Shown: positions 1 to 57,363 of the stretch, in pieces
Numbering within the stretch: position 1 is the first letter of the stretch
Layout of the letters: each line of letters opens with the position of its first letter
Source: an uncultured Bacteroidota bacterium
Lineage (GTDB): Bacteria > Bacteroidota > Ignavibacteria > Kryptoniales > JAKASW01
DNA length: 64,000 bases
Reading direction: 5' to 3'
Assembly (NCBI GenBank): GCA_963808245.1
Contig: CAWEES010000002.1
Span: forward strand, 824,177 to 888,176
Made by a program: the position numbers and the translations under genes
Notes under the pieces: generated by a model
Databases searched by the model: none
What the model was told of the DNA's origin: nothing
What the model saw: only the letters and a program-made list of their open reading frames with translations

Positions 1-40
1 TGATGGACAAGAGTGGTATGAAACTCAGCGTGAATGGTTT

Positions 41-1354
41 CTAAATCCAGAGTCTCTTCTTAGCAAAGCAGGTCAGCTCTTCCCTGAATTTCGGATGGGC
101 AATGCTTATCAATGACTTCGCTCTTTCGCTGATTTTTTTACCGTGAAGGTTCACGACACCGAATTCGGTGGCGACGTAATGCACGTCACCCCGTGAAGTC
201 GTGACGCCCGCCCCTTCAGAGAGATGGACCGCGATCCTCGATATGGTTCCGTTCTTCGCCGTTGACGGAAGCGCAACGATAGGCTTGCCCCCTTCCGATC
301 TTCCCGCGCCGCGGATAAAATCCACCTGCCCGCCGAAGCCGCTATAAAAAGCGTAACCCATGGAATCGGCACAGACCTGACCCGTCAGGTCGATTTGAAG
401 TGCCGAATTTATCGCAACCATTTTTTTATTCTGGCTGATAATGAACGGATCGTTGACATAATGCGTCGGATGGAATTCCGCTATCGGGTTATTGTGGATG
501 AAATCGAAAAGTTTCCTGCTTCCGAGCACGAAACCCGCGACCATCTTACCGGGGTGAAGCGATTTCTTTTCGTTGTTTATTATTCCATTCTCAACGAGTT
601 TGATAACTCCATCCGAAAACATTTCAGAGTGAATACCAAGATCCTTCTTTCCTTCAAGGGACATCAAAACCGCCTCGGGTATTTTCCCGATACCAAGCTG
701 GAGTGTGGAACCGTCTTCGATGAGTCCCGAAATATTTTCGCCGATCTTCTTATAGACTTCTATTTCTTCTTTAGTCGTATCTGCCTCGATTTGAGGAAGC
801 TCGAGTATCGGCGCGTCGACTTCGACAACTTTATGGATTTTGCTGACATGGATGAAACTGTCGCCCAATGCCCGCGGCATGCCGTGATTCACCTGGGCAA
901 TAACGATTTTCGCCACATCCGTCGCGGATTTTGTTATATCGACTCCGACTCCGAAGCTGCAGAAGCCATGTTCGTCCGGAGGAGAAACATGGATCAACGC
1001 GACATCGATTTTTATTTCGCCGGTATAGAAAAGATTGGAAATCTCGGAAAGGAACACCGGGATATAATCTGCGCGTCCTTCATTTACGGCCTCACGCACA
1101 TTCTTACCGATGAACAACGCGGTATGCCTGAAGTGAGACGCCATTTCAGGTTCCGCATACTTTGCCTCTCCGACAGAAAGGACGTGGTAGACTTCGCAGT
1201 CGTGTAGTTCCGGGGCGCGTCCCACCATGGCATCAACCAGGATCCCGGGTACGGCGCATCCCGGGTGAAGATGAATCTTGTCGCCGGACTTTATCACCTT
1301 CACCGCTTCCTCGGCGGTCGTTATTCTGCTTCGATACGTGTCTATCCAGGCCAT
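41..1354 (-). CDS. Acetyl-CoA hydrolase/transferase family (4-hydroxybutyrate CoA-transferase-like)
   Basis: Motifs LQLGIG, DLGIHSEM, SGFGGQVDF, GAGVTTSRGDVHYVATEFG. Likely start is ATG 1354 (MAWID), overlapping the upstream stop as TAATG. Confidence 0.9.
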   Translation of the reverse strand: MAWIDTYRSRITTAEEAVKVIKSGDKIHLHPGCAVPGILVDAMVGRAPELHDCEVYHVLSVGEAKYAEPEMASHFRHTALFIGKNVREAVNEGRADYIPVFLSEISNLFYTGEIKIDVALIHVSPPDEHGFCSFGVGVDITKSATDVAKIVIAQVNHGMPRALGDSFIHVSKIHKVVEVDAPILELPQIEADTTKEEIEVYKKIGENISGLIEDGSTLQLGIGKIPEAVLMSLEGKKDLGIHSEMFSDGVIKLVENGIINNEKKSLHPGKMVAGFVLGSRKLFDFIHNNPIAEFHPTHYVNDPFIISQNKKMVAINSALQIDLTGQVCADSMGYAFYSGFGGQVDFIRGAGRSEGGKPIVALPSTAKNGTISRIAVHLSEGAGVTTSRGDVHYVATEFGVVNLHGKKISERAKSLISIAHPKFREELTCFAKKRLWI

Positions 1355-26611: not shown

Positions 26612-27664
26612 CTACGGGTTTATAGCGAGTACTCCGGAAACCGATTTGCTGGAGGCAACAGAAGACTGATTATATCGCCTGGAAGAAGCAACCGGGAACT
26701 CGTTAGAAAACTTAAACGTGTAGAAACCATCCCTCGCTGCCGCGAAACTCTGGGATACATAGTTACCACTGACAAGTCTGTCGAACAAAATATTCGACTC
26801 CGGATCATAAATAATTAAGTAAATGTTATCGTCCGAATTGCCAGAGATGTTCAGCCGCAACTGGTAATTCATGTCAGCCACAAGAATTCTTGAGAACGAG
26901 GCGCTGGAGTCCGAAGCGATGGAGGGATAATTAAACGGAACCATGATACTTGTAGAAAGACTATCACTTGTGGGGGGATAGCTGCTAAAATCCATAATAA
27001 TTTCCCCGGAGTAAGCAGTTTGAGCTGCTCCCGAATCGTAAACCACCATTGCCCAACCACCGCACAAGTTACTCATAAATTCCTGGGTGAAATTAGCCCC
27101 CGTAACCATTTGATCAAGTTTATAAGAACCGTCCGGGCTTACTACAGTAATGTGAACAGGATTTGTCACAGTATCCAGCTGAATAGTAACCTTGACATCG
27201 TGGCTCAAGATACCGTTAGAACACTGGACAAAAGAATAGCTGTCAAAACTAAATTTCTGCATTGAGTAAGAATTCGGATCAATTGTGCTATTTACAAAAG
27301 TTGTTTCTTGCACCGCCTGGACGTAGAAATCCATGGTCTGTGTCGTGTCAGGAATCACCTTAACCTGTTCCGAAGCGGTTTGATATCCTGACGCCAATAC
27401 TTCCATAAGGTAGGTACCGGATTGTACTAGCGAATATGGGAAAGAGTAAGTCCCATTTGATGATGTTTTTACAGCGTGCGAACCTAGCTCAACAATCGCG
27501 AATGGAACAGGAGTATGAGTCGTGGAATCAAAGACACTTCCTTGAATAGGGACACTGACAGGTGGTGGTGTGGCCAGGTTGCTCTTGTTGCAACCCTGTG
27601 ATCCCAGGAAAATTAGGAGAAGCAAAGGCAAAAGGGGCATCACTTTTTTAAAGCGCTCTCTCAT
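26612..27664 (-). CDS. Lipoprotein: carboxypeptidase-regulatory-like domain plus beta-sandwich (GOLD-like) domains
   Basis: Lipobox GSQGC, IQGSVFDSTTHTPVPFAIV...GTYLMEVLASGYQT, C-terminal DGFYTFKFSNEF. Confidence 0.6.
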   Translation of the reverse strand: MRERFKKVMPLLPLLLLIFLGSQGCNKSNLATPPPVSVPIQGSVFDSTTHTPVPFAIVELGSHAVKTSSNGTYSFPYSLVQSGTYLMEVLASGYQTASEQVKVIPDTTQTMDFYVQAVQETTFVNSTIDPNSYSMQKFSFDSYSFVQCSNGILSHDVKVTIQLDTVTNPVHITVVSPDGSYKLDQMVTGANFTQEFMSNLCGGWAMVVYDSGAAQTAYSGEIIMDFSSYPPTSDSLSTSIMVPFNYPSIASDSSASFSRILVADMNYQLRLNISGNSDDNIYLIIYDPESNILFDRLVSGNYVSQSFAAARDGFYTFKFSNEFPVASSRRYNQSSVASSKSVSGVLAINP

Positions 27665-39491: not shown

Positions 39492-41438
39492 TTAGTTCGA
39501 AACGAATGTCGTCACACTCGATGGACCCAGTGTAGTTATGAAGCTGCCGTTAGATAGCGCGATATTATTCCCTTGCAAACAATTCTCTGTGCTCGATGTA
39601 ACGTATGGCGTATACGAACTTGCCGTTCCACCTTGCACAGTGAACGGTAGAGTCACCGCAGTGGAGCCCATATTTAAAGCTACGATCACTACTTTTGCGC
39701 CATTCCTGTAAGCTGTCACAAACGTATTCGACACGGGGCTCGCGGTAGCACTGACGCGATAAAACCCGGGACGAACAAATCTGGCGAATTGAGATATGAC
39801 ATATCCTTTATGAGTTACATTGCCGGTGTTTGCGGAATTGAATTGACCATCATCGATTGGACCATAAAATCTTACAATGTACCACCAAACGTAGGCGCTC
39901 ATATTGTAACTCATGCAATCATTAATAGTCTTCGCTGTCTGCATGGCGCCAGCCCAGCCCGTGTCAACACTAGTAGGATTTGTGTTGGAGCCGCTATTTA
40001 TCAAATATTCCGTCATCCACAACTCTTTTCCTTTTTGCAGAGCAAGGGGATATTGAACTGACGATTGAACGTCACCTTTAGTATCGACATCTCCGTACAA
40101 ATGTCCGCCTATAAAGGCAACATGCGCCGCGGCAAGAGAATCGTTGAGCGTTGAATCAGAGAGCGAATGTCTATAACCCTCAGATTCAGGCATGAAAACA
40201 GGGACGCCAACCGCCGGTGCATTGTACCTCATGAAGTTCATAAATTGCGTCGCATTCCAGTCACACGATTGATAAGATACGCCGGCATCCGGTTCGTTTT
40301 GAACGGAGATACCGTATAATGATACCCCATGTTCAGTCATGGTATCGGCGAATGCCTTCAGATGTGCGGCGTATGCCGCATAATCACTCTGAATAAGAGA
40401 GCCGCCAGCAGTGGTATCATTGGTCTTCATCCATGAAGGAGGCGTCCATGGTGTTGCAATAATTGTCGCGCCGAGATTCTGAGCGGCCAGCGCCGAAGGG
40501 GCATTAGCGGCAAACTGTGTAGAGTCAGGCGGAATGGAAAGGCGCATTATGGTCAGCCCAACCTGTCCTGTGCCATTGCCGAATGCCGTCTGCACTTCGG
40601 CGGGTGTCATGTCTGGACGGAAAATTAAAGTGTTTGCTCCGCCGAATCCTCTTATGATTTGTTTGGTACTGTCAAGATATACGATTGCTTGAGGGAGGCT
40701 AACACTGAAATTGATTGACGTGTCGCTTTGAATGACGGTGTTGCCGAATTGTTTGGACACGATTGTGGGCGAAGTGCTGTCGGTATTTGATATTTCGACC
40801 ACAAAAGTTTCTGAACTGGAAAGAATCCCATTAGGAGCACTTTGAATTTCGTCAGCTCCCATCATTGCTTGCGATGATACTATCCCTGGAAGCAGGACTG
40901 AATTCGCGCTTCCTCCCACTCCGAATACCATTTTCCTAACTTGAGCTTCACCGCCGGCTTGAAGCTTATAGAAATAGACTCCGGGCACAACCTCTTTGCC
41001 AAAATCGTTTCTGCCATTCCACACTATGCCGTGAGATCCTGCCGCCTGGTAACCGGCATCGAATCTCCGTATCTCTCTCCCAAGGACATCGTAAATCGAC
41101 ACCTTTACATCTGACTGATTTTTCAACGCGTACGATATGGCGGTAGAGGATGAAAACGGGTTTGGATAATTCTGCTCGAGTTTGAAATCTTTAGGCGGCT
41201 GACTCGCTTGCTTCACTGCCGTAATCGGACTGAGTGAAAAAGCTCCCGTTGAGTCTGTCACCGCATTGTATTGGATGGAGAAGTTATAACTGTCTAAGAA
41301 AGTGATCGACGCATACCGGACAGGGATCCCGGATGCAGTCACGATACCCTTGACGGAATACGTATTCGCACGAACGGAAAACGGAATAGCTGCCAGCATT
41401 GTTAGAGCCAACAAAAGATTTATTTGTGCATTTTTCAT
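39492..41438 (-). CDS. GH30_8 glucuronoxylanase with internal T9SS-CTD-like domain (paralog A)
   Basis: IRGFGG, TPWTPP.WMK, SVQNEPD, WMTE, AYVWWYIVRFYG. EQNYPNPF lies near the N-terminus. Confidence 0.9.
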   Translation of the reverse strand: MKNAQINLLLALTMLAAIPFSVRANTYSVKGIVTASGIPVRYASITFLDSYNFSIQYNAVTDSTGAFSLSPITAVKQASQPPKDFKLEQNYPNPFSSSTAISYALKNQSDVKVSIYDVLGREIRRFDAGYQAAGSHGIVWNGRNDFGKEVVPGVYFYKLQAGGEAQVRKMVFGVGGSANSVLLPGIVSSQAMMGADEIQSAPNGILSSSETFVVEISNTDSTSPTIVSKQFGNTVIQSDTSINFSVSLPQAIVYLDSTKQIIRGFGGANTLIFRPDMTPAEVQTAFGNGTGQVGLTIMRLSIPPDSTQFAANAPSALAAQNLGATIIATPWTPPSWMKTNDTTAGGSLIQSDYAAYAAHLKAFADTMTEHGVSLYGISVQNEPDAGVSYQSCDWNATQFMNFMRYNAPAVGVPVFMPESEGYRHSLSDSTLNDSLAAAHVAFIGGHLYGDVDTKGDVQSSVQYPLALQKGKELWMTEYLINSGSNTNPTSVDTGWAGAMQTAKTINDCMSYNMSAYVWWYIVRFYGPIDDGQFNSANTGNVTHKGYVISQFARFVRPGFYRVSATASPVSNTFVTAYRNGAKVVIVALNMGSTAVTLPFTVQGGTASSYTPYVTSSTENCLQGNNIALSNGSFITTLGPSSVTTFVSN

Positions 41439-41518
41439 AAAGTTTCTCCTTAAATATCAACAAGTAATATCCAGCAAGCTTGAAAGATTCCGACCATTGC
41501 CTTTGGAACCTCGCAAGA

Positions 41519-42868
41519 TCAAGATTTTTTTTTAACTAAAACAAGTTCTTTCATCGTGCTAAATCTCTCCGACGCAATACGGTACAAGTAAACGCCGCTC
41601 GGAAGACAATCGGCATTGAATGTGACATTGTAATATCCCGCGTTTTGAGTTTCGTTTACCAGTGTCGCGACCTCTCGGCCTATTGAGTCGTGTACTTTCA
41701 AAGTAACATGGCTCGCTGCGGGAATCTGGTAATCGATGATCGTGGACGGATTGAATGGGTTCGGATAGTTTTGCAGGAGCTCCGTCGACGATGGTATGTC
41801 AAACAGGTGTTGCCGTTTCATCCCTACGGTGGTGGCTCCGACAAGAACAGCACTTCCGCTATTGGGAATTACATCAAATATGACGTATTCCAGGGAATCT
41901 ACTTTCACTATCTGTGAATTTAACTGTTTTCCATTTTGATAGACATCGGCTGAAGACCAATTCTTTGGAAGTTGTCTGCGGACAGTAAGAGGCAAATCGA
42001 AGAGAGAATCGTTGAGGCTGTCGGTCAACTGCACGACAATAGTGTCTTCCTGATTGGCGATTTCCGATACCTTCGCCGAATTTCTTTCTTTTATATATTT
42101 GACAACATTTCCGAACGTCGAGACCCAGAACTTTTCAGGATTCGCACTCAAATACTGCAGGCTTGCCCTGAGCGTATCTGAAGAGAGCGGCGAGTACCCA
42201 CCGTCATTATCAATTCCATGAATTAGATAGACACACCAACCGTTCGACTTAACCGCGTTGTCGGCATTGGTTTTGAAATCCGCGCCCGTTTTCACTGACC
42301 CAACTGCCCCGCAGATTATAGAACTAATATTCATAAAATCCCTGGGGGTCTTAGCTTCTATATATCCCTGGCAGCCGCGTGCGGCAATATAATACTGAGA
42401 AATCATTGCGGCGTTCCCTTCAGCGCAATACGGATATGCTACCGTGGTACATTTCTGTCCGTTGATATGAGCATTAATAATGCTTTGTGAATTTTGCAAC
42501 TCAGTCAATTGCAGGGAGTCAGACAGACTGTCTAAGTAAGGGTGTGACATGGTGTGACTGCCAATTTCATTTCCCCTTGCGGCGGCACCCTGCAAGCCAG
42601 ACCAATTCGGGCTCCAATTTACGACCGTGAACAGGGTTAAGTTGAAATTGAACTGGTTGAACATGGGCACCGCGATGGCAAGCTGGTTGGAGCAATTATC
42701 GTCGAACGTATAGCTTATCGCTGCCGACCGGAATCCCCGCCAAGTGCCGATTTGATAAGAGTCGGGAACCGATTGTGATAGGCACCTGTAATTGGACAAT
42801 AGTAAAAGGACTAAAACACTGCGCCGCAACCAATGGCGAGTGAGACCTTTCAAAATTAAAATGTACAT
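41519..42868 (-). CDS. CE4 polysaccharide deacetylase (likely acetylxylan esterase) with T9SS CTD
   Basis: YTFDD, GSHTMSH, AYPY, C-terminal QNYPNPFNP. Confidence 0.85.
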   Translation of the reverse strand: MYILILKGLTRHWLRRSVLVLLLLSNYRCLSQSVPDSYQIGTWRGFRSAAISYTFDDNCSNQLAIAVPMFNQFNFNLTLFTVVNWSPNWSGLQGAAARGNEIGSHTMSHPYLDSLSDSLQLTELQNSQSIINAHINGQKCTTVAYPYCAEGNAAMISQYYIAARGCQGYIEAKTPRDFMNISSIICGAVGSVKTGADFKTNADNAVKSNGWCVYLIHGIDNDGGYSPLSSDTLRASLQYLSANPEKFWVSTFGNVVKYIKERNSAKVSEIANQEDTIVVQLTDSLNDSLFDLPLTVRRQLPKNWSSADVYQNGKQLNSQIVKVDSLEYVIFDVIPNSGSAVLVGATTVGMKRQHLFDIPSSTELLQNYPNPFNPSTIIDYQIPAASHVTLKVHDSIGREVATLVNETQNAGYYNVTFNADCLPSGVYLYRIASERFSTMKELVLVKKKS

Positions 42869-43024
42869 TTTAGATTCATTGTTATCCGGTCAATAAATTC
42901 TATCATACCCCGACTTCCCTGGAAGGATGTTCCTTGCCGGATAATTGATAAAAGGACCGATTAGATCGCTTTCAGAAGAATGAGTATTCAAAATTTCTTT
43001 CCTGTTCAATACACTTTCGGGTGT

Positions 43025-44908
43025 TTAGTTCGACACAAACGTCGTCACACTCGAGGCGTCCAGAGTAGCTTCAAAATTGCCGCCAGATACGCTCACGTTG
43101 TTTCCCTGGGCGCAACTCTTGGTGCTCGAGGTTTCATAAGGTATAAATGAACCGACTGATCCATTTTGCAGACTAAATTCCATAGTGACCGGGGTTGACC
43201 CCTGGTTAACCACAACAATAACAACCTTTGCGCCATCCTTATAAGCCGTCACGTACACATTCGATACAGGGCTCTGGGTAGCACTAACGCGGTAGTACCC
43301 CGGCCTCACAAATCTCGCATTCTGGGACATGATGTATCCTCTTTTCGTGGGATTGCCGCTTTGATCGAGCGGGCCCCACGATACCATTATGTACCACCAC
43401 ACATAAGCGGACATATCGGCATTCATGCAATCGTTGATTTCTTTGCCAACAGGAAGCGCAGCGACCCAGTTGTTTCCGGAATCTGCGTCGGTGGTGTAAT
43501 GTTCGGTCATCCACACTTCTTTCCCTTGCTTTATCGCAAGCGGATAAGTAGATGGGCTCATTCCATAAATGTGTTCGCCAATAAAAGCAACATGGGAAGC
43601 GGCAACCGAATCATTTAATGTCGAATCCGACAATTGACGGACGAAGCTTTCAGACTCGGGCATGAAGACCGGCACACCGACAGACGGTGCATAGTTCTTC
43701 ATGAAATTGACAAACTGCGTCGCATTCCAGTCGCATGATTCGTAAGTCACGTTAGCATCAGGCTCGTTTTGGACCGAGATCGCATAAATCGAAACGCCAT
43801 GGCTTGACATTGTGTCTGCGAATGCTTTCAGATGTGCGGCGTATGCCGCGTAATCACTTTGAACAAGATAGCCGCCAGCAATGTTGTCGTTGGTCTTCAT
43901 CCAAGCGGGGGGCGTCCATGGCGTCGCAATAATCGCGGCACCTAAGTCCTGAGCCGTCAGGGCCGACCGAACATTGGCGCTGAACTGCGTGGAATCAGGT
44001 GAGATCCGAAGACGCATTATCGTGAACCCTAATTGCCCAACACCGTTGCCGAAGGCTGTCAGCACCTCGGTCGAAGTCATGTCGGGGACCCAGCCCACTA
44101 TGTTTGCGGCTCCAAACCCTCTTATGATTTGCTGGGTACTGTCAAGATACACGATAGCTTGCGGAAGAGCCACGCTGAAGTCGAGTGTCGTGTCGCTTTG
44201 AAGGACGACACCGCCTACTTGTTTTGGTACGATTGTGGGTGAAGTGCTGTCGGTATTCGATATTTCAACCACAAATGTCTCTGAACTAGAAAGAGTCGTG
44301 CCAGGCACGCTCCGAATTTCACCAACTCCTGTCTTCGTTTGGGAATGCATTACTCCCGACAGCAGTCCTGAATTCGTGTTTTCCCCTACTCCAAATAACA
44401 TCTTCCTGACCTGAGTTTTACCGTCCGCTTGAAGACGGCATAAATATACCCCCGGCATCACCACTCTCCCCAAATCGTTTCTTCCATTCCAAACTACCCC
44501 ATAAGTTCCCGCCGACTGAAATCCAACTTCGAATGTCCTTATCTCTCTCCCAAGAACATCGTATATGGTCACCTTCACATCCGACTGCTCCTCCAATTTG
44601 TACGATATGGAGGTCGAGGCTGAAAACGGATTTGGATAATTCTGTTCGAGATGAAATTTTTGAGGCAGCTGACTCTCCTGCTTCACTGCCGTGATCGAGC
44701 TCAGCGTAAACGCTCCTGTCGAATCAGTCTCCGCATTGTATTGAATGGAAAAATCATAACTGTCGTAGAAGGTGATCGATGCATATCGGACAGGGTTTCC
44801 CGATGTGGTTACTGTGCCTTTGACCTTGTACGTCTCCGCGCGAACAGAAAATGGAACAATCGCAAACATCGATAGAACCACCAAAATATTTAAGTAAATA
44901 CTCTTCAC
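43025..44908 (-). CDS. GH30_8-type xylanase with internal T9SS-CTD-like domain (paralog B)
   Basis: Same architecture as paralog A with long shared nucleotide tracts. SVQNEPD, WMTE, AYVWWYIMVSWG. Confidence 0.9.
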   Translation of the reverse strand: MKSIYLNILVVLSMFAIVPFSVRAETYKVKGTVTTSGNPVRYASITFYDSYDFSIQYNAETDSTGAFTLSSITAVKQESQLPQKFHLEQNYPNPFSASTSISYKLEEQSDVKVTIYDVLGREIRTFEVGFQSAGTYGVVWNGRNDLGRVVMPGVYLCRLQADGKTQVRKMLFGVGENTNSGLLSGVMHSQTKTGVGEIRSVPGTTLSSSETFVVEISNTDSTSPTIVPKQVGGVVLQSDTTLDFSVALPQAIVYLDSTQQIIRGFGAANIVGWVPDMTSTEVLTAFGNGVGQLGFTIMRLRISPDSTQFSANVRSALTAQDLGAAIIATPWTPPAWMKTNDNIAGGYLVQSDYAAYAAHLKAFADTMSSHGVSIYAISVQNEPDANVTYESCDWNATQFVNFMKNYAPSVGVPVFMPESESFVRQLSDSTLNDSVAASHVAFIGEHIYGMSPSTYPLAIKQGKEVWMTEHYTTDADSGNNWVAALPVGKEINDCMNADMSAYVWWYIMVSWGPLDQSGNPTKRGYIMSQNARFVRPGYYRVSATQSPVSNVYVTAYKDGAKVVIVVVNQGSTPVTMEFSLQNGSVGSFIPYETSSTKSCAQGNNVSVSGGNFEATLDASSVTTFVSN

Positions 44909-44935: not shown

Positions 44936-46507
44936 TCATTTCAAAAGTGTAAGTTTCCTTGTTTCACCGTTTGAACCAGCGATCAATCGGTAAAAGTAAA
45001 CTCCGCTTGGTAAACCAGCCCCATTGAACGTTATGCTATGTGTTCCAGCACTCTGTCTCTCATCAACGAGCGTGGTTATCTCTCTACCAAGTGCATCATA
45101 AACTTTCAAAACGACGTGAGTCGCAGCAGGAATCTGATAATCGATGACTGTCGTCGGGTTGAAAGGATTTGGATAGTTTTGAGATAAAGAGAACGAGGCA
45201 GGGATTTCTTTGGAGTCTCTCACGCCGGTGGTTATAGAGTCTCCCGTTGTAAAACTCACGGGGGCAGCGAAATCGCCTGTGTCGCTTGCATTCATCGCGG
45301 CAACATGCCAGTAATACTTTGTATTCGCGTTTAGCGGTGACAGCTGAAAAACAGTATCCGATACCGTCGAATCTAGCACTATGGAAGAGAACATGTTGTC
45401 GGTTGCCACCTGCAAACGATATGAAGATGCGGCAATTGATGAATGCCACATGATAAGAGGATTGCGCGGTTCACCTGTTGTATCGGCAGCCGGGGATATT
45501 ACAACAGGCTGCAACAAGTACTTTACTAAATATGTTCGCAGCCACTGGAGAGCTGGACGCTCTGACCCGTCTGAGTTCACTAAATACGCATACGGCTCCC
45601 ACGTCTGACCGTAAGTATATCCCCAAAAAGTTATTCCCTTGACGCCCGGGTTCTCAAATAGCATCGGGAATATTGACTTGTAATCATTCAACTGATGTGT
45701 GTCGTTTGTGTCGTTGATTGCAAATTCGGAAATGTAAATAGGCAACCCAGTGGCAGCTAACTTATTTAAGTTTGCTTTCATCGTAGATAGAGAGGCGCCA
45801 CCGGTCGCAACTTCAAAAGAATGCGCTTGTACCCCTATGCCGTCAATCAGCCCTCTTACCTTCAACGAGTCGATGAGGTTGATATATGTTGCGGTGTTAC
45901 TGTTGCTATTGATTATACTATATTCGTTCACAAGAAGCTTTGTATTGGGCGACCAGTATTCCCTTGCCAGTTTGAACGCGTTGATTACCCAGTCCCAGCC
46001 TGTCTTGCCGGTTCCGCCGAGGGCAGTCTTATAAATTGTAGGAAGGGGAGTATGTATCGGCTCGTTGACAACATCACAGAGAGCCGCGTCGGGATATCTT
46101 TGTCCACAAGAGTCGATCCAGTTTACTATTTCCTGGTACAGTTGCGCCGAATCAAGACCTGTAATGAAGCTCGGATATTGCGAGCCCCAGATCAGATTAT
46201 GCTCCTTGAAAGGGAAACCGTTTAGGATAGCATAATTGTAATCATTATCGAGAGCGGTCCAGCTGTAAACACCGGGATTGCTTTCGACGCTCCCCCACTT
46301 ACCGTCATTCTCCGGAGTTACCTGATCCCAATAAGTGGCAAAATCCGAGCGAATGCTGTAGGCATTATGAATAACATTTCCCACGAATTTGCTCCTGCCA
46401 AGGGCCAATTGCGAAAAAGACCGGGACGGGAAGATAAAAATAATAAGTAAAGCACATACGTGAATGGTCAATAAACCTCTGATGAATAACCTGAAATTAA
46501 ATAACAT
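44936..46507 (-). CDS. GH10 xylanase + Fn3-like domain + T9SS CTD
   Basis: VTPENDGKW, DVVNEP, YISEF, TKYYWHV, QNYPNPFNP. Confidence 0.93.
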   Translation of the reverse strand: MLFNFRLFIRGLLTIHVCALLIIFIFPSRSFSQLALGRSKFVGNVIHNAYSIRSDFATYWDQVTPENDGKWGSVESNPGVYSWTALDNDYNYAILNGFPFKEHNLIWGSQYPSFITGLDSAQLYQEIVNWIDSCGQRYPDAALCDVVNEPIHTPLPTIYKTALGGTGKTGWDWVINAFKLAREYWSPNTKLLVNEYSIINSNSNTATYINLIDSLKVRGLIDGIGVQAHSFEVATGGASLSTMKANLNKLAATGLPIYISEFAINDTNDTHQLNDYKSIFPMLFENPGVKGITFWGYTYGQTWEPYAYLVNSDGSERPALQWLRTYLVKYLLQPVVISPAADTTGEPRNPLIMWHSSIAASSYRLQVATDNMFSSIVLDSTVSDTVFQLSPLNANTKYYWHVAAMNASDTGDFAAPVSFTTGDSITTGVRDSKEIPASFSLSQNYPNPFNPTTVIDYQIPAATHVVLKVYDALGREITTLVDERQSAGTHSITFNGAGLPSGVYFYRLIAGSNGETRKLTLLK

Positions 46508-52753: not shown

Positions 52754-54318
52754 TTGGAGTTTGAATCCTCCTTCTGATTGAAATATCTATCTGCAAACTT
52801 CAAGAAGTACGGCCAGTTCGGGCCGACCGTATGTCCATCTTCATGTTGACGAAATGCAAGTGTACCATCCAGAAGTGAAGTGCCTATTGGCGGCATTGCT
52901 GATGTATCCAGTGCTTTCTCGCCGAGTAATTCATAAACAGGTCCTGCTGCAACGTCTGCCATGAACTGTCCTTTGTCATCTACCCAGTTTCCTTCGTGCT
53001 CAGGTGAACCACCGCTTATGAAGACAGGTCGGGGCGCACAAAGATCGATCAGCTCGTGCGAATCGACAGACAAATCGTTTGGAGTCAAAATGTATTTGAG
53101 AAAATTTCCGGCAAACCAATGATACTCGCCCGACGAACAGATGTTACCCATGTCTTCACCGAAATCGCGTCGGTAAAGTGCTGCTCCTCCTTTTCCGGAC
53201 GAACCGATGAGAACGATCGCAAACCGTTGATCCTCAGCCATAGTCAGTAGGACTCCTTTGCCATATCTTGAAACGCCTTCGATGCCGACCTTCTTTGAAT
53301 CCACAGAGCTATCGGTTTCAAAATAGTCCAAGACTCTGCTCGCACCCCATGCCCATGCCCGCAGCGCGCCCCACTGATCGAGTGGGCGAGACTGCCCCTT
53401 GTTCACGAGTCCTATAATTCCTTCTGAAAGTCCAGCGCCGTTATCAGCTTGAACACTGGTGGGAACATAGATGGCGTAGCCCCAACCCTTGTCAAGAACC
53501 TGCTCTTGCCAGCTCGGACCGGTCTCTTGCGGCATTCCCGGAAACTTGAATCCTGGAGGAAATACAAAACCGAATTCCATTATTACCGGGACTGGATGTT
53601 CAGCCTTTGCTGGAGTCGTCAAAGTCACCTGTATATTAACATCGATACTTGTGTCCGTTGAATTGTCAACTCCACCTACAAGCTCTCTAGTAATAACAGG
53701 AACCTTTCCGACAATCGTGTCTTTTGTACTGACAACCTCCCAGTGGACTGCAGGGACGTCTGCTGGGACTTCGCCATATATCTCACTGTCGAACTGTGCC
53801 ATGATCTCTGGCCGCTTTTCCTTCCACCATGTTTCTGCGGTCGTCACGGGTTTGCCGTTATCCAATTTCAAAGGATCAGGTAAATTCGGAAATGGATTTG
53901 CTTTTGATTCGTCGTAGTTGTTCCAAGTTCCCCAGTCGGAACGAGTATATGTATTGCCCGTACTGTCATACCAGTTGGTAGATCCCGCCTTCTGAAATGT
54001 GTTCCTGGGACGGTTTGGATCTTCGGCGACAGGCGGGAGCGAATCAAGTAATTTCATATTGAGAAGGTTAATCGTCCTCTGCCAGTCCTTTTCGGACTCG
54101 ACATTAATCTTAGCGAAATAAGCGGCACGCTCCTTCGGTGACATCAGAAAAATGCCCGTTGTCTGAGCACTACAAATGAATGGAGAGGATAACGCGCTAA
54201 TGACAAGAATAAAAGTCAAGAGAAGATGAGAAGCCACGCAGGTCTTATCTTCAGAATAACTTATCCTCACGACTTCAAATTCTTTGCCTAATCCGGATTG
54301 CATCTTTTCTCTTCTCAT
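52750..54318 (-). CDS. CE15 glucuronoyl esterase-like protein
   Basis: NYDESKANP, WGALRAWAWGASR, GVSRYGK catalytic motif, APRP, QHEDGH. Confidence 0.85.
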   Translation of the reverse strand: MRREKMQSGLGKEFEVVRISYSEDKTCVASHLLLTFILVISALSSPFICSAQTTGIFLMSPKERAAYFAKINVESEKDWQRTINLLNMKLLDSLPPVAEDPNRPRNTFQKAGSTNWYDSTGNTYTRSDWGTWNNYDESKANPFPNLPDPLKLDNGKPVTTAETWWKEKRPEIMAQFDSEIYGEVPADVPAVHWEVVSTKDTIVGKVPVITRELVGGVDNSTDTSIDVNIQVTLTTPAKAEHPVPVIMEFGFVFPPGFKFPGMPQETGPSWQEQVLDKGWGYAIYVPTSVQADNGAGLSEGIIGLVNKGQSRPLDQWGALRAWAWGASRVLDYFETDSSVDSKKVGIEGVSRYGKGVLLTMAEDQRFAIVLIGSSGKGGAALYRRDFGEDMGNICSSGEYHWFAGNFLKYILTPNDLSVDSHELIDLCAPRPVFISGGSPEHEGNWVDDKGQFMADVAAGPVYELLGEKALDTSAMPPIGTSLLDGTLAFRQHEDGHTVGPNWPYFLKFADRYFNQKEDSNSK

Positions 54319-57300
54319 TTGTTGCTAGCAACTTCTCTGTGGAAACTTTCCGGCGGCCCGAGATAGCTCGGCTTGACACCACCGCAATTCACAACAATTT
54401 TCTCGAGCACGACACCAGGATCAACCATCCAGATCTTCAGCGTGTGGTAACCCGGCTTGTCAACAGTGAGAGAAGTATGGCTGTGGCGCACATTATCCGC
54501 CACCGATTCTTCCCAGTCCCTGCCATAACCTGCCACGTATTTGGCCGGAACAAGCGTCACGATCTCCGGGGAAGCATCATCAAATGAAACCGCATACCGG
54601 AGACCTAGATCCGGCATGAAGTTCAGCGACGAACCGAAGATCCCTTCCACATCGACCTTACCTGTATCAAACAGAAACATTTTGTACTCTAAGCAAGGAG
54701 AAGCTTTTCCCGGCGTGGCGGCTGGCGCGTCGAAAGGTGAAGTTGCTCTCATACCGGAAAGCGTGTTTCCATAATCTTCGACATTGATCCAGCGGTCCGC
54801 CCCCGCTTCGGTCTTTCCAGTGTAGTGCTCGGCTTCGATTGAAACAAAACCTTCTCCTTCCACAAAACCTCTCAGACCTTCGCGCGATAATTTTGCCGTA
54901 TTATTGGCTTTTACTTTCACGGGAACACTTTGACCCGCACCCGTAATCTTTACGATACCACTGTCCGTACCACCCGGTGCTTTGGTCCAATCCACACTGA
55001 CCTGGAGTGTTGTTTGCTTTTCGACTTCACCTTCAGTCGAAGATATTTTTATCCACGGCACATCAGCATCCACAGAATATTGGAATGGACTTTTCCCGCG
55101 ATTAAATATGTCGATGGAATAACTTTGTCGATTGTACTCGTCATACGGCGGCAATACCGCGTCATCTTGAGTCTCCAGGCCATGATTCTTCTGAGCCCTC
55201 GAGTGCGACGCCCATTGATGCCGCATCCGGATTACTGGTTTCGTTAAGATGGATAGCATTTAAGTTATTGCTGTTGGGCTGGTTCCAGCCTGTATACCCA
55301 AGCACTGGTTGATCCATGAAGTGGTCCCATTTACCATTCGCAAATGTTCGATTAAAATATCCCATCAAACTCGTATCTGACTGAAATAGAGAACGAACCT
55401 GGTCTGCCATTTCGTCCGTACTTGCCCTTCCCTGTTTGGCATACAACGCGTTCTTCCCGGCTGCAACATACAACTCATTCACAATCTCACTCGCCTTTGT
55501 CGGGAACAACACCAGCTCATAAAACGCATCGCGTTCATCGGCCGGAAGTTTGTTGTAAATCTCTTCTGCTTTCTCCGTGATAGATTTGAAATCTGCGATG
55601 ACGTTCTCTGCTTCATGGTAATTGGTAAGGCTATAAGTTGTAGGGGTAAGCAATTCGGGTTTACGTCGACCGTTATACTGCGTGTACTTAGAAATAATAT
55701 CTGCAATTTCTTTGGCATAAGTTGGTCCGAATTGCTGCTCCGCCCACAGTCGAGTGTATTCGTCAATATTGCTGTTTGTCCATTTTGGGGTATCCCAGGC
55801 AAGATCCAAGAAGTACTGCATTGGAAGCTCATAGCCCTTCAGGTGTCCCACATTTACAATCCAGATCCTGTCCGCACCATAATCTTTCGCCAGCGACATC
55901 TGGTCCCAAATTTTTGAAATCGGGTTCGTGTTGATCCACTCATAGTTTCTCGGGCCGCCATGATAATCAAAATGATAATAAACCCCGGCGCCACCGTTGC
56001 GTTTTCGTTCCTCGGAAGTCGGCAGCCGGCGAATGTTCCCCCAGTTGTCATCAGTCCACAGGATTGTTACATCCTCAGGGACACGAAATCCCGCATTATA
56101 GAAATCGAGGACTTCTTTGTACGGGCACCACAGCTGGGGTACCTTCGTAACATCAGGGTTCATTTCTTCTTTTAATATGTTGCGCTGGACATCCACAATT
56201 TTTCCCAGCAATGCCATGTTCGCTTCCGGACCTCCTGGAGCCATCGGCGTGTCGTTTGGTCCGCGAAGTCCGATCGTAACAATACTCTCGTAATTCCTAT
56301 TCCGCCTGATCCCTTCGCGCCAAAAATTTGTAACCGTGTCCGGATACTTCGCGAAGTTCCATGGTCCTATCGTCATCGAATATCGTCTGTCCCATTCTTT
56401 CTGCGCCCGCAGCATCGGTTCCTGATGAGAAGTCCCCATGACAATGCCATATTCATCTGCAAGTTTCGGATTCAATGAATCGTCCTCATTGAACGCGTTG
56501 TTCCACATTGCAGGCCAGAGGTAATTTCCTTTGAGGCGAAGAATCAATTCGAACACCTTCTCATAAAAAAGATGGTTATAGTTCGCAACACCGGACGGGA
56601 TCGGAGGATTCTGACTAACCGGAACGGTACCAAATTTAGAATAGACCCAGTTCGACAAATCGGGAGCTTCGTCATTTAGAAAGATTCCACGATACTTAAC
56701 CGACGGCGGCCCCTGCACATACCTGATCGGTTTCACGTACAAAGCGTTCTCATGCCGGATAGGCACATCTCCCCACCAATACCAGGGAGACACACCGATT
56801 TTCTCGGAGAGGTCATAGATTCCATATATTGTCCCGCGCTTATCGCTGCCGGCGATTACGAGAGCGCGTTCGACACCGGGTAGCGGCTTGTCAACTACCT
56901 GTATAATATATGACTCCCACTTGCCTTCAATGTCGCTAAGGTTAAATTTTTTGTCCTGTACCAGTTTGTCAATCAATGGACTCTGGCCTATCGTTCCGAC
57001 CAAGACCAATTCGTCCATTCCCTGAAGACTATCAAACACAACGTCCGATTTCGCGCCCGTGACCTTGCCAATGTCCGATTGAAGATCTCTCAAAGCTCGA
57101 ATGACTCCAGGATAGTCCTTAGAACTGATACATAATGGCACAGATTTGCCCAACACTGATAACGCAAATTCCCCTTTCCCATTCTCGTGGCTGACGTACG
57201 TCAAGCCGCCGATCGCAAACGCATCGAGCGGGATAATAAACGTGCAAATCCAAAGGACAAATTCCAAAATAACGAGACCCGAAGATGCTGAAAGAATCCG

Positions 57301-57363
57301 TCTTTTTAATTGTATAGAACTCTTTACTCGCTGTGATTCTGCAGAATTATCCAGAGTTTTCAT
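54315..57363 (-). pseudogene. GH115 alpha-(4-O-methyl)glucuronidase split by a frameshift near 55165-55175 (ORFs 55162-57363 and 54315-55259)
   Basis: GSDKRGTIYGIY, YRGIFLNDE, LWPAMW, DDNWG, YYHFDY in the first ORF. VSIEAEHY and LKIWMVDPGV in the second. The frames join at SWPG..|DDAVLP. Confidence 0.8.

Follow-up and report, generated by a model that had tools for sequence, protein, structure and literature searches.

Can a sorting domain that is defined by its place at the end of a protein do its work from the middle of one? The question is raised by two genes in a stretch of 64,000 nucleotides from an uncultured Bacteroidota bacterium (lineage Bacteria; Bacteroidota; Ignavibacteria; Kryptoniales; JAKASW01), positions 824,177 to 888,176 of contig CAWEES010000002.1 in assembly GCA_963808245.1, the whole of which is referred to here as the window. 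Targeting by a type IX secretion system (T9SS) is defined by a C-terminal domain (CTD) that is cleaved off. In the two genes considered here, which encode enzymes of glycoside hydrolase family 30 (GH30), a full-length CTD is instead found close to the N-terminus, within a loop of another domain, forming with that domain a cassette that precedes the catalytic domain.

A type-A CTD within the N-terminal region of two GH30 paralogs

The two open reading frames (ORFs), P0001 (648 aa) and P0002 (627 aa, with a GTG start), are paralogs with 66% identity across 648 aa and a shared architecture, consisting of a signal peptide, four strands of a beta-sandwich, a type-A T9SS CTD, a tether of ~30 aa, three further sandwich strands, and a GH30 domain that runs up to the stop codon. 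The N-terminus of each is hydrophobic and signal-peptide-like by inspection, with a helix at residues 2–16 in the structure models, and profile searches of the whole ORFs detected no terminal CTD in either protein, with no residues left beyond GH30. The embedded unit is matched by TIGR04183 with 40.3 bits in P0001 (aa 91–171) and 39.4 bits in P0002 (aa 91–170; cut-off 23), by PF18962 with 29.6 and 28.3 bits (cut-off 27), and by FlgD_ig with 42.9 and 43.9 bits (cut-off 27). An initial annotation of the window, which described an internal CTD and no tail CTD in both paralogs and proposed the TIGR04183 and FlgD_ig models as a check, is borne out by these matches; its coordinates for the CTD (40925–41190 and 44395–44660) are correct, and correspond to aa 84–171 of each protein.

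The GH30 proteins share with canonical type-A cargo, such as the GH10 and carbohydrate esterase family 4 (CE4) proteins of the window, RgpB, and RemA/RemZ, the CTD family and its motifs, the immunoglobulin (Ig)-like fold, an invariant lysine, a Sec signal peptide, and the presence of T9SS genes. They differ from this cargo in that the CTD does not occupy the extreme C-terminus, lying at aa 86–173 of 648 and 627 residues respectively, in the loop of another domain, with the chain running on past it. A six-frame scan of the organism's own genome (4.05 Mb), with a profile derived from the CTD of the cassette, found 147 ORFs with a CTD, 143 of them ending within 20 aa of the stop codon and 137 within 5 aa. 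Only in the two GH30 ORFs does a complete CTD lie far from the protein end, the other two outliers being a fragmentary ORF of 88 aa and a match of partial length, and the internal position of the GH30 CTDs is therefore not due to chance.

The 143 canonical tails score a median of 67 bits, at full length, against the cassette-derived profile, and have in common with the embedded unit the motifs ..F.L.QNYPNPF..T.I.Y....V.L.IYD.LGRE.......AG.H......SGVYFYRL.AG....KK. In 105 of 105 sequences, and in 71 of 71, the lysine K169 (P0001 numbering, as throughout) is invariant; it lines up with the KK found in canonical tails and may be equivalent to K1110 of RemZ. Lauber 2024 (PMC10994853) describes a near-invariant lysine near the CTD's end that touches PorV, a CTD bound in folded form within the SprA pore and by the loops of PorV, and conserved CTD motifs that dictate the fold.

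In our AlphaFold2 (AF2) model, the insert is predicted to form six strands (aa 100–172) with a predicted local distance difference test (pLDDT) of 86–93. Comparison by VIA-align matches its fold to FlgD (3osv; Z 9.3, 31% identity) and to the CTD of PorU (6za2_B; Z 9.1, root mean square deviation (rmsd) 2.3, 81 residues aligned), and Foldseek is concordant, with matches to 5m11, 6za2, and FlgD (E 6e-5). Of the solved structures, the Ig-like domain of the flagellar hook-cap protein FlgD (PF13860; 3osv, 7eha) comes closest to the insert in both sequence and fold; however, the insert has QNYPNPF at its start and KKM at its end, as in T9SS domains, and the FlgD_ig repeats of giant proteins lack both. 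The CTDs of PorU and PorZ (6za2, 5m11) are alike in fold but C-terminal, and belong to components of the machine rather than to enzymes with exchangeable passengers. The cassette CTD scores 118–155 bits over the full profile, compared with 22–47 bits, over positions 7–79 of 87–88 only, for the tandem FlgD_ig repeats of giant proteins. The embedded unit is a bona fide CTD and not a remote Ig domain. The giant proteins include an S8 subtilase of 2194 aa (P0122) with 14 tandem FlgD_ig repeats, without the first and last CTD motifs, and ~20 similar proteins were seen.

The insertion of the CTD within a single N-terminal beta-sandwich, as proposed in the same annotation, is supported by structure prediction and by naturally uninterrupted copies of the domain. 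The sequence preceding the CTD matches CarboxypepD_reg (PF13620) below threshold (19.2 and 23.0 bits compared with 32.3; aa 28–73), covering only positions 1–46 of the 82 in the profile, and aa 200–255 alone have no match in Pfam, even with E relaxed to 10. The second half of the fold is consequently not assignable by sequence, and the claim that it is a second half rests on the model and on the uninterrupted copies. An AF2 model of aa 1–255, built from a 105-row alignment (mean pLDDT 73.1, predicted template modelling score (pTM) 0.43), has confident strands at aa 25–74 (four), 100–172 (six), and 210–246 (three), with low-confidence tethers at aa 74–95 and 175–208, and the model of the full-length protein has the same layout (pLDDT 81.3, pTM 0.71). 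The AlphaFold check that had been suggested gave as its top match, for the model rather than a solved structure and by VIA-align against representatives, the transthyretin-like domain of human carboxypeptidase D (5aq0_B; Z 10.4, rmsd 1.9 Å, 78 of 82 residues aligned, model range 27..250), followed by domain II of duck carboxypeptidase D (1qmu_A; Z 9.5) and the N-terminal extension of SusC (9hfj; Z 9.3). A superposition across 27..250 requires that both flanks pack into a single sandwich, with the insert skipped.

In P0130, a metagenomic protein of 1030 aa, the region after the cassette contains two copies of the sandwich that are uninterrupted (aa 249–338 and 633–724), and a BNR/YCF48-like propeller. 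Both copies align to both flanks, with a hairpin of 5–6 aa exactly at the insertion point of the cassette, and thus represent a natural empty site. The transthyretin-like domains of PF13620 (5aq0/1qmu, SusC 9hfj) form the same seven-strand sandwich, and the cassette sequence matches the first half of their profile; in contrast to these, the cassette sandwich is split by an insert of ~130 aa and falls below the Pfam threshold, with the uninterrupted form of the subfamily met in P0130 only. A word-indexed search with aa 245–345 of P0130 returned only P0130 itself among 134 candidates, and is too insensitive to judge how rare uninterrupted forms are. Mean-field direct coupling analysis of 217 cassettes (effective number of sequences, Meff, 192) was uninformative, placing its top 120 pairs in the signal peptide, N-half, and C-half, with none between the halves and none even in the well-folded CTD. 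Across 218 cassettes the first tether measures 8–12 aa (~9) and the second 21–37 aa (median 29), the greater length of the latter probably being needed to bridge the two ends of the Ig-like sandwich, which lie far apart.

Spread of the cassette and its alternation with tail CTDs and lipoprotein signals

Searches with the first 250 aa return 757 proteins, 355–1133 aa long, at E<=0.001 among 6264 candidates, and 127 representatives at E<=1e-30 in a library of 1.84 billion proteins, with the N-half, CTD, and C-half found in order in 218 of the 267 proteins fetched. A search for the same N-terminal region on other domains, as the initial annotation had suggested, shows passengers besides GH30: PD40 (TolB-like) propellers, BNR/YCF48-like propellers, PKD and LRR domains together, an extra CarboxypepD_reg domain, and regions without an assigned family. 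The cassette is a portable module. It was found in eight of 401 genomes sampled across the phylum, all eight within the class of the window, in 25 of 301 sampled from that class, and in 15 of 26 genomes of the genus, with related loci in Kryptoniota, Ignavibacteria, Neomarinimicrobiota, and Calditrichota. Two cultured Melioribacter sp. genomes (L139, L151) encode the cassette-GH30 form. A second family with this architecture is provided by M19 dipeptidases of 540–552 aa, found at six of 30 loci (L104–L107, L109, L110; class genomes), in which a divergent CTD lies at ~aa 87–173 between transthyretin-like halves. In one ortholog (genome G488; L023, C1:1576611-1577364) the cassette is broken across two frames near aa 95–98, by a frameshift or a sequencing error.

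Mean pairwise identity in 71 proteins is 0.63 for the embedded CTD, 0.58 for GH30, and 0.37 and 0.23 for the two tethers, compared with 0.51 for the CTD and 0.62 for GH30 in six GH30 proteins with a tail CTD. The embedded CTD is the best conserved of these parts, and the tethers are the least conserved despite their narrow length range, a pattern in keeping with a functional unit. The extra conservation of the embedded CTD would fit a domain that is retained after maturation.

The strongest functional argument is the mutual exclusivity of cassette and tail CTD. None of the 218 cassette proteins has a second CTD. The 31 GH30 ORFs at 30 class loci, which are the fetched part of 42 matches in 25 genomes, comprise 20 with the cassette and one with a disrupted cassette, six with a C-terminal CTD, four with neither, and none with both. 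A set of 79 named loci, which may overlap with the 30, contains 78 GH30 ORFs, of which 50 have the cassette, 14 a C-terminal CTD, 12 neither, two a partial cassette, and again none both. The tail-CTD forms carry signal peptidase I (SPase I) signals, and the four CTD-less GH30_8 orthologs (L031, L049, L050, L051; same genus; 416–433 aa) have lipoprotein signals (..AGCSKK..), a third mode of localisation. A quick maximum-likelihood tree, made from 30 GH30 domains, requires four changes of the cassette label, of which well-supported branches force at least three. These changes, taken with the exclusivity, indicate that the catalytic domain has repeatedly been swapped among three localisation devices, with the cassette acting as one of them.

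Export, retention, and competing explanations

The organism's own genome encodes PorU (925.7 bits, cut-off 420), SprA (910 bits summed, cut-off 200), PorQ (234 bits, cut-off 220), and, adjoining PorU, a PorV-like protein that scores slightly under its cut-off (247 bits compared with 250). Co-folding of this PorV with aa 80–178 gave an ipSAE of 0.88 (runs of 0.89, 0.88, and 0.88), compared with 0.01 for the best of three controls, with a partner pLDDT of at least 84 and at least 77% of contacts common to the runs; when the method was calibrated, 58 of 80 solved complexes and two of 110 mismatched pairs attained the mark used. The predicted interface takes in residues 88–94 and 169–171. Directly downstream of secA there are genes for a PorU2-like sortase paralog (1624 aa) and a PorV2-like barrel (L191 743-6621; own genome C2:2331742-2337620).

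On balance we consider it likely that the cassette works as an internal signal for T9SS export and for retention, a reading favoured by its exclusivity with tail CTDs, the invariant lysine, the T9SS in the genome, and the PorV docking model. The cassette-GH30 chain would be exported through Sec, and aa 25–75 and 208–248 would assemble into a single transthyretin-like sandwich, as suggested by the model and natural controls, from one hairpin of which the complete CTD would hang by a short (~9 aa) and a long (~29 aa) tether. The PorV/SprA translocon may still read the embedded CTD as a folded domain, and the CTD would then carry the GH30_8 endoxylanase across the outer membrane, replacing the C-terminal CTD of its sister enzymes. 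As the CTD lies upstream of its passenger, it is not removable by a single PorU cut, and it is probably retained, or merely nicked, once the enzyme is mature and on the surface or outside the cell. A precedent is given by PorU and PorZ, which retain their CTDs as mature surface proteins, docked to PorV or PorQ. The initial annotation had named an internal secretion signal and a repurposed domain as alternatives, and the indirect evidence leans to the signal.

Several observations weigh against a working signal. To our knowledge, all characterised T9SS cargo has a C-terminal CTD, and a non-terminal one is not known to be accepted by a T9SS. The canonical KK[LM]xL[LVI]K-stop is replaced in the cassette by KKMxFGxGG, with the loss of the terminal lysine and the free carboxylate, and the lipoprotein forms of GH30 show the enzyme to be able to function when it has no CTD. 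The exclusivity counts are drawn from related genomes and are not independent, while the result of PorV docking may reflect memory of solved CTD-PorV complexes, and speaks to likeness and not to function. A PorU2/PorV2-like pair dedicated to the cassette was considered and rejected, as 13 of the 26 genomes of the genus have both, two the cassette only, seven PorU2 only, and four neither. The higher conservation of the embedded CTD compared with tail CTDs on the same passenger (0.63 and 0.51; n=6 tails) could equally mean a new, non-signal job. It is joined by the internal use of CTD/FlgD_ig-like domains elsewhere, with giant proteins carrying 6–15 tandem copies, by a protein, P0230, that pairs a full N-terminal CTD (aa 51–136) with another at its C-terminus, and by the loss of the canonical LLK-stop in suggesting a repurposed domain, no longer a signal but an Ig-like module for structure, adhesion, or the binding of carbohydrate or protein, on proteins that are periplasmic or exported otherwise. 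We nevertheless consider repurposing rather unlikely. The tandem repeats are partial and low-scoring, in contrast to the full-length cassette CTD; cassette proteins lack a tail CTD, though secreted enzymes of these lineages normally have one; orthologous GH30 enzymes alternate between cassette, tail CTD, and lipobox; and K169 is invariant. Furthermore, given what is established for GH30_8, an endo-acting glucuronoxylanase would be expected to need access to xylan polymers beyond the outer membrane.

A special case of the signal reading, put forward in the initial annotation, is that PorU cuts the first tether, the N-half of ~55 aa being transferred to a surface glycolipid and the enzyme held non-covalently, with the C-half completing the sandwich. 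This is consistent with the resemblance of the first tether and first CTD strand to the canonical pre-CTD junction (...P..F.L.QNYPNPF), with the very constant length of that tether, with the presence of PorU, PorV, and PorQ in the genome, and with the lipobox on sister GH30 enzymes, which implies that N-terminal tethering of the enzyme is tolerated. It is nonetheless doubtful, and improbable overall: attachment of the anionic lipopolysaccharide (A-LPS) type is known only from Bacteroidia, a nicked sandwich of 4+3 strands would have to hold an enzyme of 45 kDa, and the CTD would stay on the enzyme, unlike in any known processed cargo. Finally, the arrangement might have been an artefact, in which gene fusion, mis-assembly, or a decaying pseudogene joined a small CTD protein to a xylanase, a situation that the disrupted ortholog of genome G488 might be thought to exemplify. 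However, the frames are intact in both paralogs, the cassette recurs in hundreds of proteins, all three parts are conserved under selection, and the flanks are complementary halves of one fold, and an artefact is refuted for practical purposes.

If the cassette is indeed an internal signal, T9SS recognition would need no free C-terminus, PorU processing would give a different outcome, census methods that examine only tails would miss a class of cargo, and proteins that require their C-terminus to be free could be exported by this route, widening the view of how the T9SS reads its cargo. If, in addition, the first tether is cut and the enzyme held, a C-terminal sortase system would have been turned into an N-terminal, non-covalent anchoring device movable between passengers. 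Our search of the literature, in titles, abstract openings, and passages of main text, found no description in print of a non-terminal CTD. The abstract of Rakitin 2015 reportedly mentions a Por sorting domain in the GH30_8 glucuronoxylanase MrXyn30A of Melioribacter roseus. MrXyn30A is tabulated as a characterised enzyme in PMC12921914, and the available text of the Melioribacter genome paper mentions Por domains as C-terminal only. The question is directly testable, as cultured Melioribacter strains encode the cassette-GH30 form.

The GH30 enzymes and the glucuronoxylan locus

The catalytic domain of P0001 is spanned by a GH30_8 XynC-type model (aa 250–648), and PF02055 matches the paralogs with 49.9 and 34.9 bits (cut-off 23). 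The solved GH30_8 chains of XynA (1nof_A, 294 bits) and XynC (3gtn_A, 275 bits) align to aa 253–648, with homology throughout the catalytic domain, but these solved enzymes are without the N-terminal cassette. The XynC equivalog model NF052681 scores 335.6 and 362.2 bits, under its cut-off of 650, indicating related enzymes and not equivalogs of Bacillus XynC. Residues E382 (in NEP) and E477 (in TE), which we take to be the GH30 catalytic pair, are invariant in 71 sequences and both are kept in P0002. At aa ~502–505 of P0002, corresponding to aa 521–524 of P0001, a valine replaces R523 (WWYIMVSWGP compared with WWYIVRFYGP), the arginine being present in P0001 and in at least 90% of the 71 homologs. 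The arginine of this GH30_8 loop presumably binds the glucuronate side chain, and the second paralog may therefore differ in its substrate requirement.

The coordinates of the paralogs, their domains, and the two window genes with a canonical tail CTD are collected in Table 1.

Table 1. Positions in the window of the GH30 paralogs, their domains, and neighbouring T9SS cargo genes.
Feature	Position	Strand	Basis
P0001, whole ORF including stop; cassette and GH30_8 xylanase	39492..41438	-	profiles, solved-chain alignment
P0001 aa 1–24, Sec signal peptide with an SPase I-type site (...SVRA|N)	41367..41438	-	inspection; helix 2–16 in models
P0001 aa 25–75, N-half (4 strands) of predicted transthyretin/CarboxypepD_reg-like sandwich	41214..41366	-	partial profile match, model
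P0001 aa 76–85, tether 1	41184..41213	-	model, 218-cassette comparison
P0001 aa 86–173, embedded type-A T9SS CTD of full length, with predicted Ig-like sandwich and invariant K169	40920..41183	-	profiles, model
P0001 aa 174–207, tether 2, low pLDDT, poorly conserved	40818..40919	-	model, 218-cassette comparison
P0001 aa 208–248, predicted C-half (3 strands) of sandwich begun by aa 25–75	40695..40817	-	model, P0130 alignment
P0001 aa 249–648, GH30 subfamily 8 catalytic barrel and side sandwich, to stop	39495..40694	-	profiles, solved structures
P0002, whole ORF including stop, 627 aa, GTG start	43025..44908	-	profiles, alignment to P0001
P0002 aa 25–75, sandwich N-half	44684..44836	-	profile, alignment to P0001
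P0002 aa 86–173, embedded type-A CTD	44390..44653	-	profiles, alignment to P0001
P0002 aa 208–248, sandwich C-half	44165..44287	-	alignment to P0001
P0002 aa 249–627, GH30_8 domain	43028..44164	-	profiles, alignment to P0001
CE4-type deacetylase, canonical C-terminal CTD (aa 368–443 of 449)	41519..42868	-	profiles
GH10 xylanase with fn3-like domain, canonical C-terminal CTD (aa 445–519 of 523)	44936..46507	-	profiles

The window is a glucuronoxylan locus, with genes for GH115, GH8, CE15, GH43, two GH10, two GH30, and CE4 enzymes, an acetyl esterase, UxuA, UxaC, and a LacI regulator. The catalytic and C-terminal domains of GH115 lie in two overlapping ORFs of the minus strand in different frames (54315–55259 and 55162–57363), which suggests that this alpha-glucuronidase gene is frameshifted or mis-sequenced. 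Additionally, a 350-aa protein encoded at 26612–27664 on the minus strand contains an ordinary, uninterrupted CarboxypepD_reg domain, which scores above the cut-off (43.5 bits).

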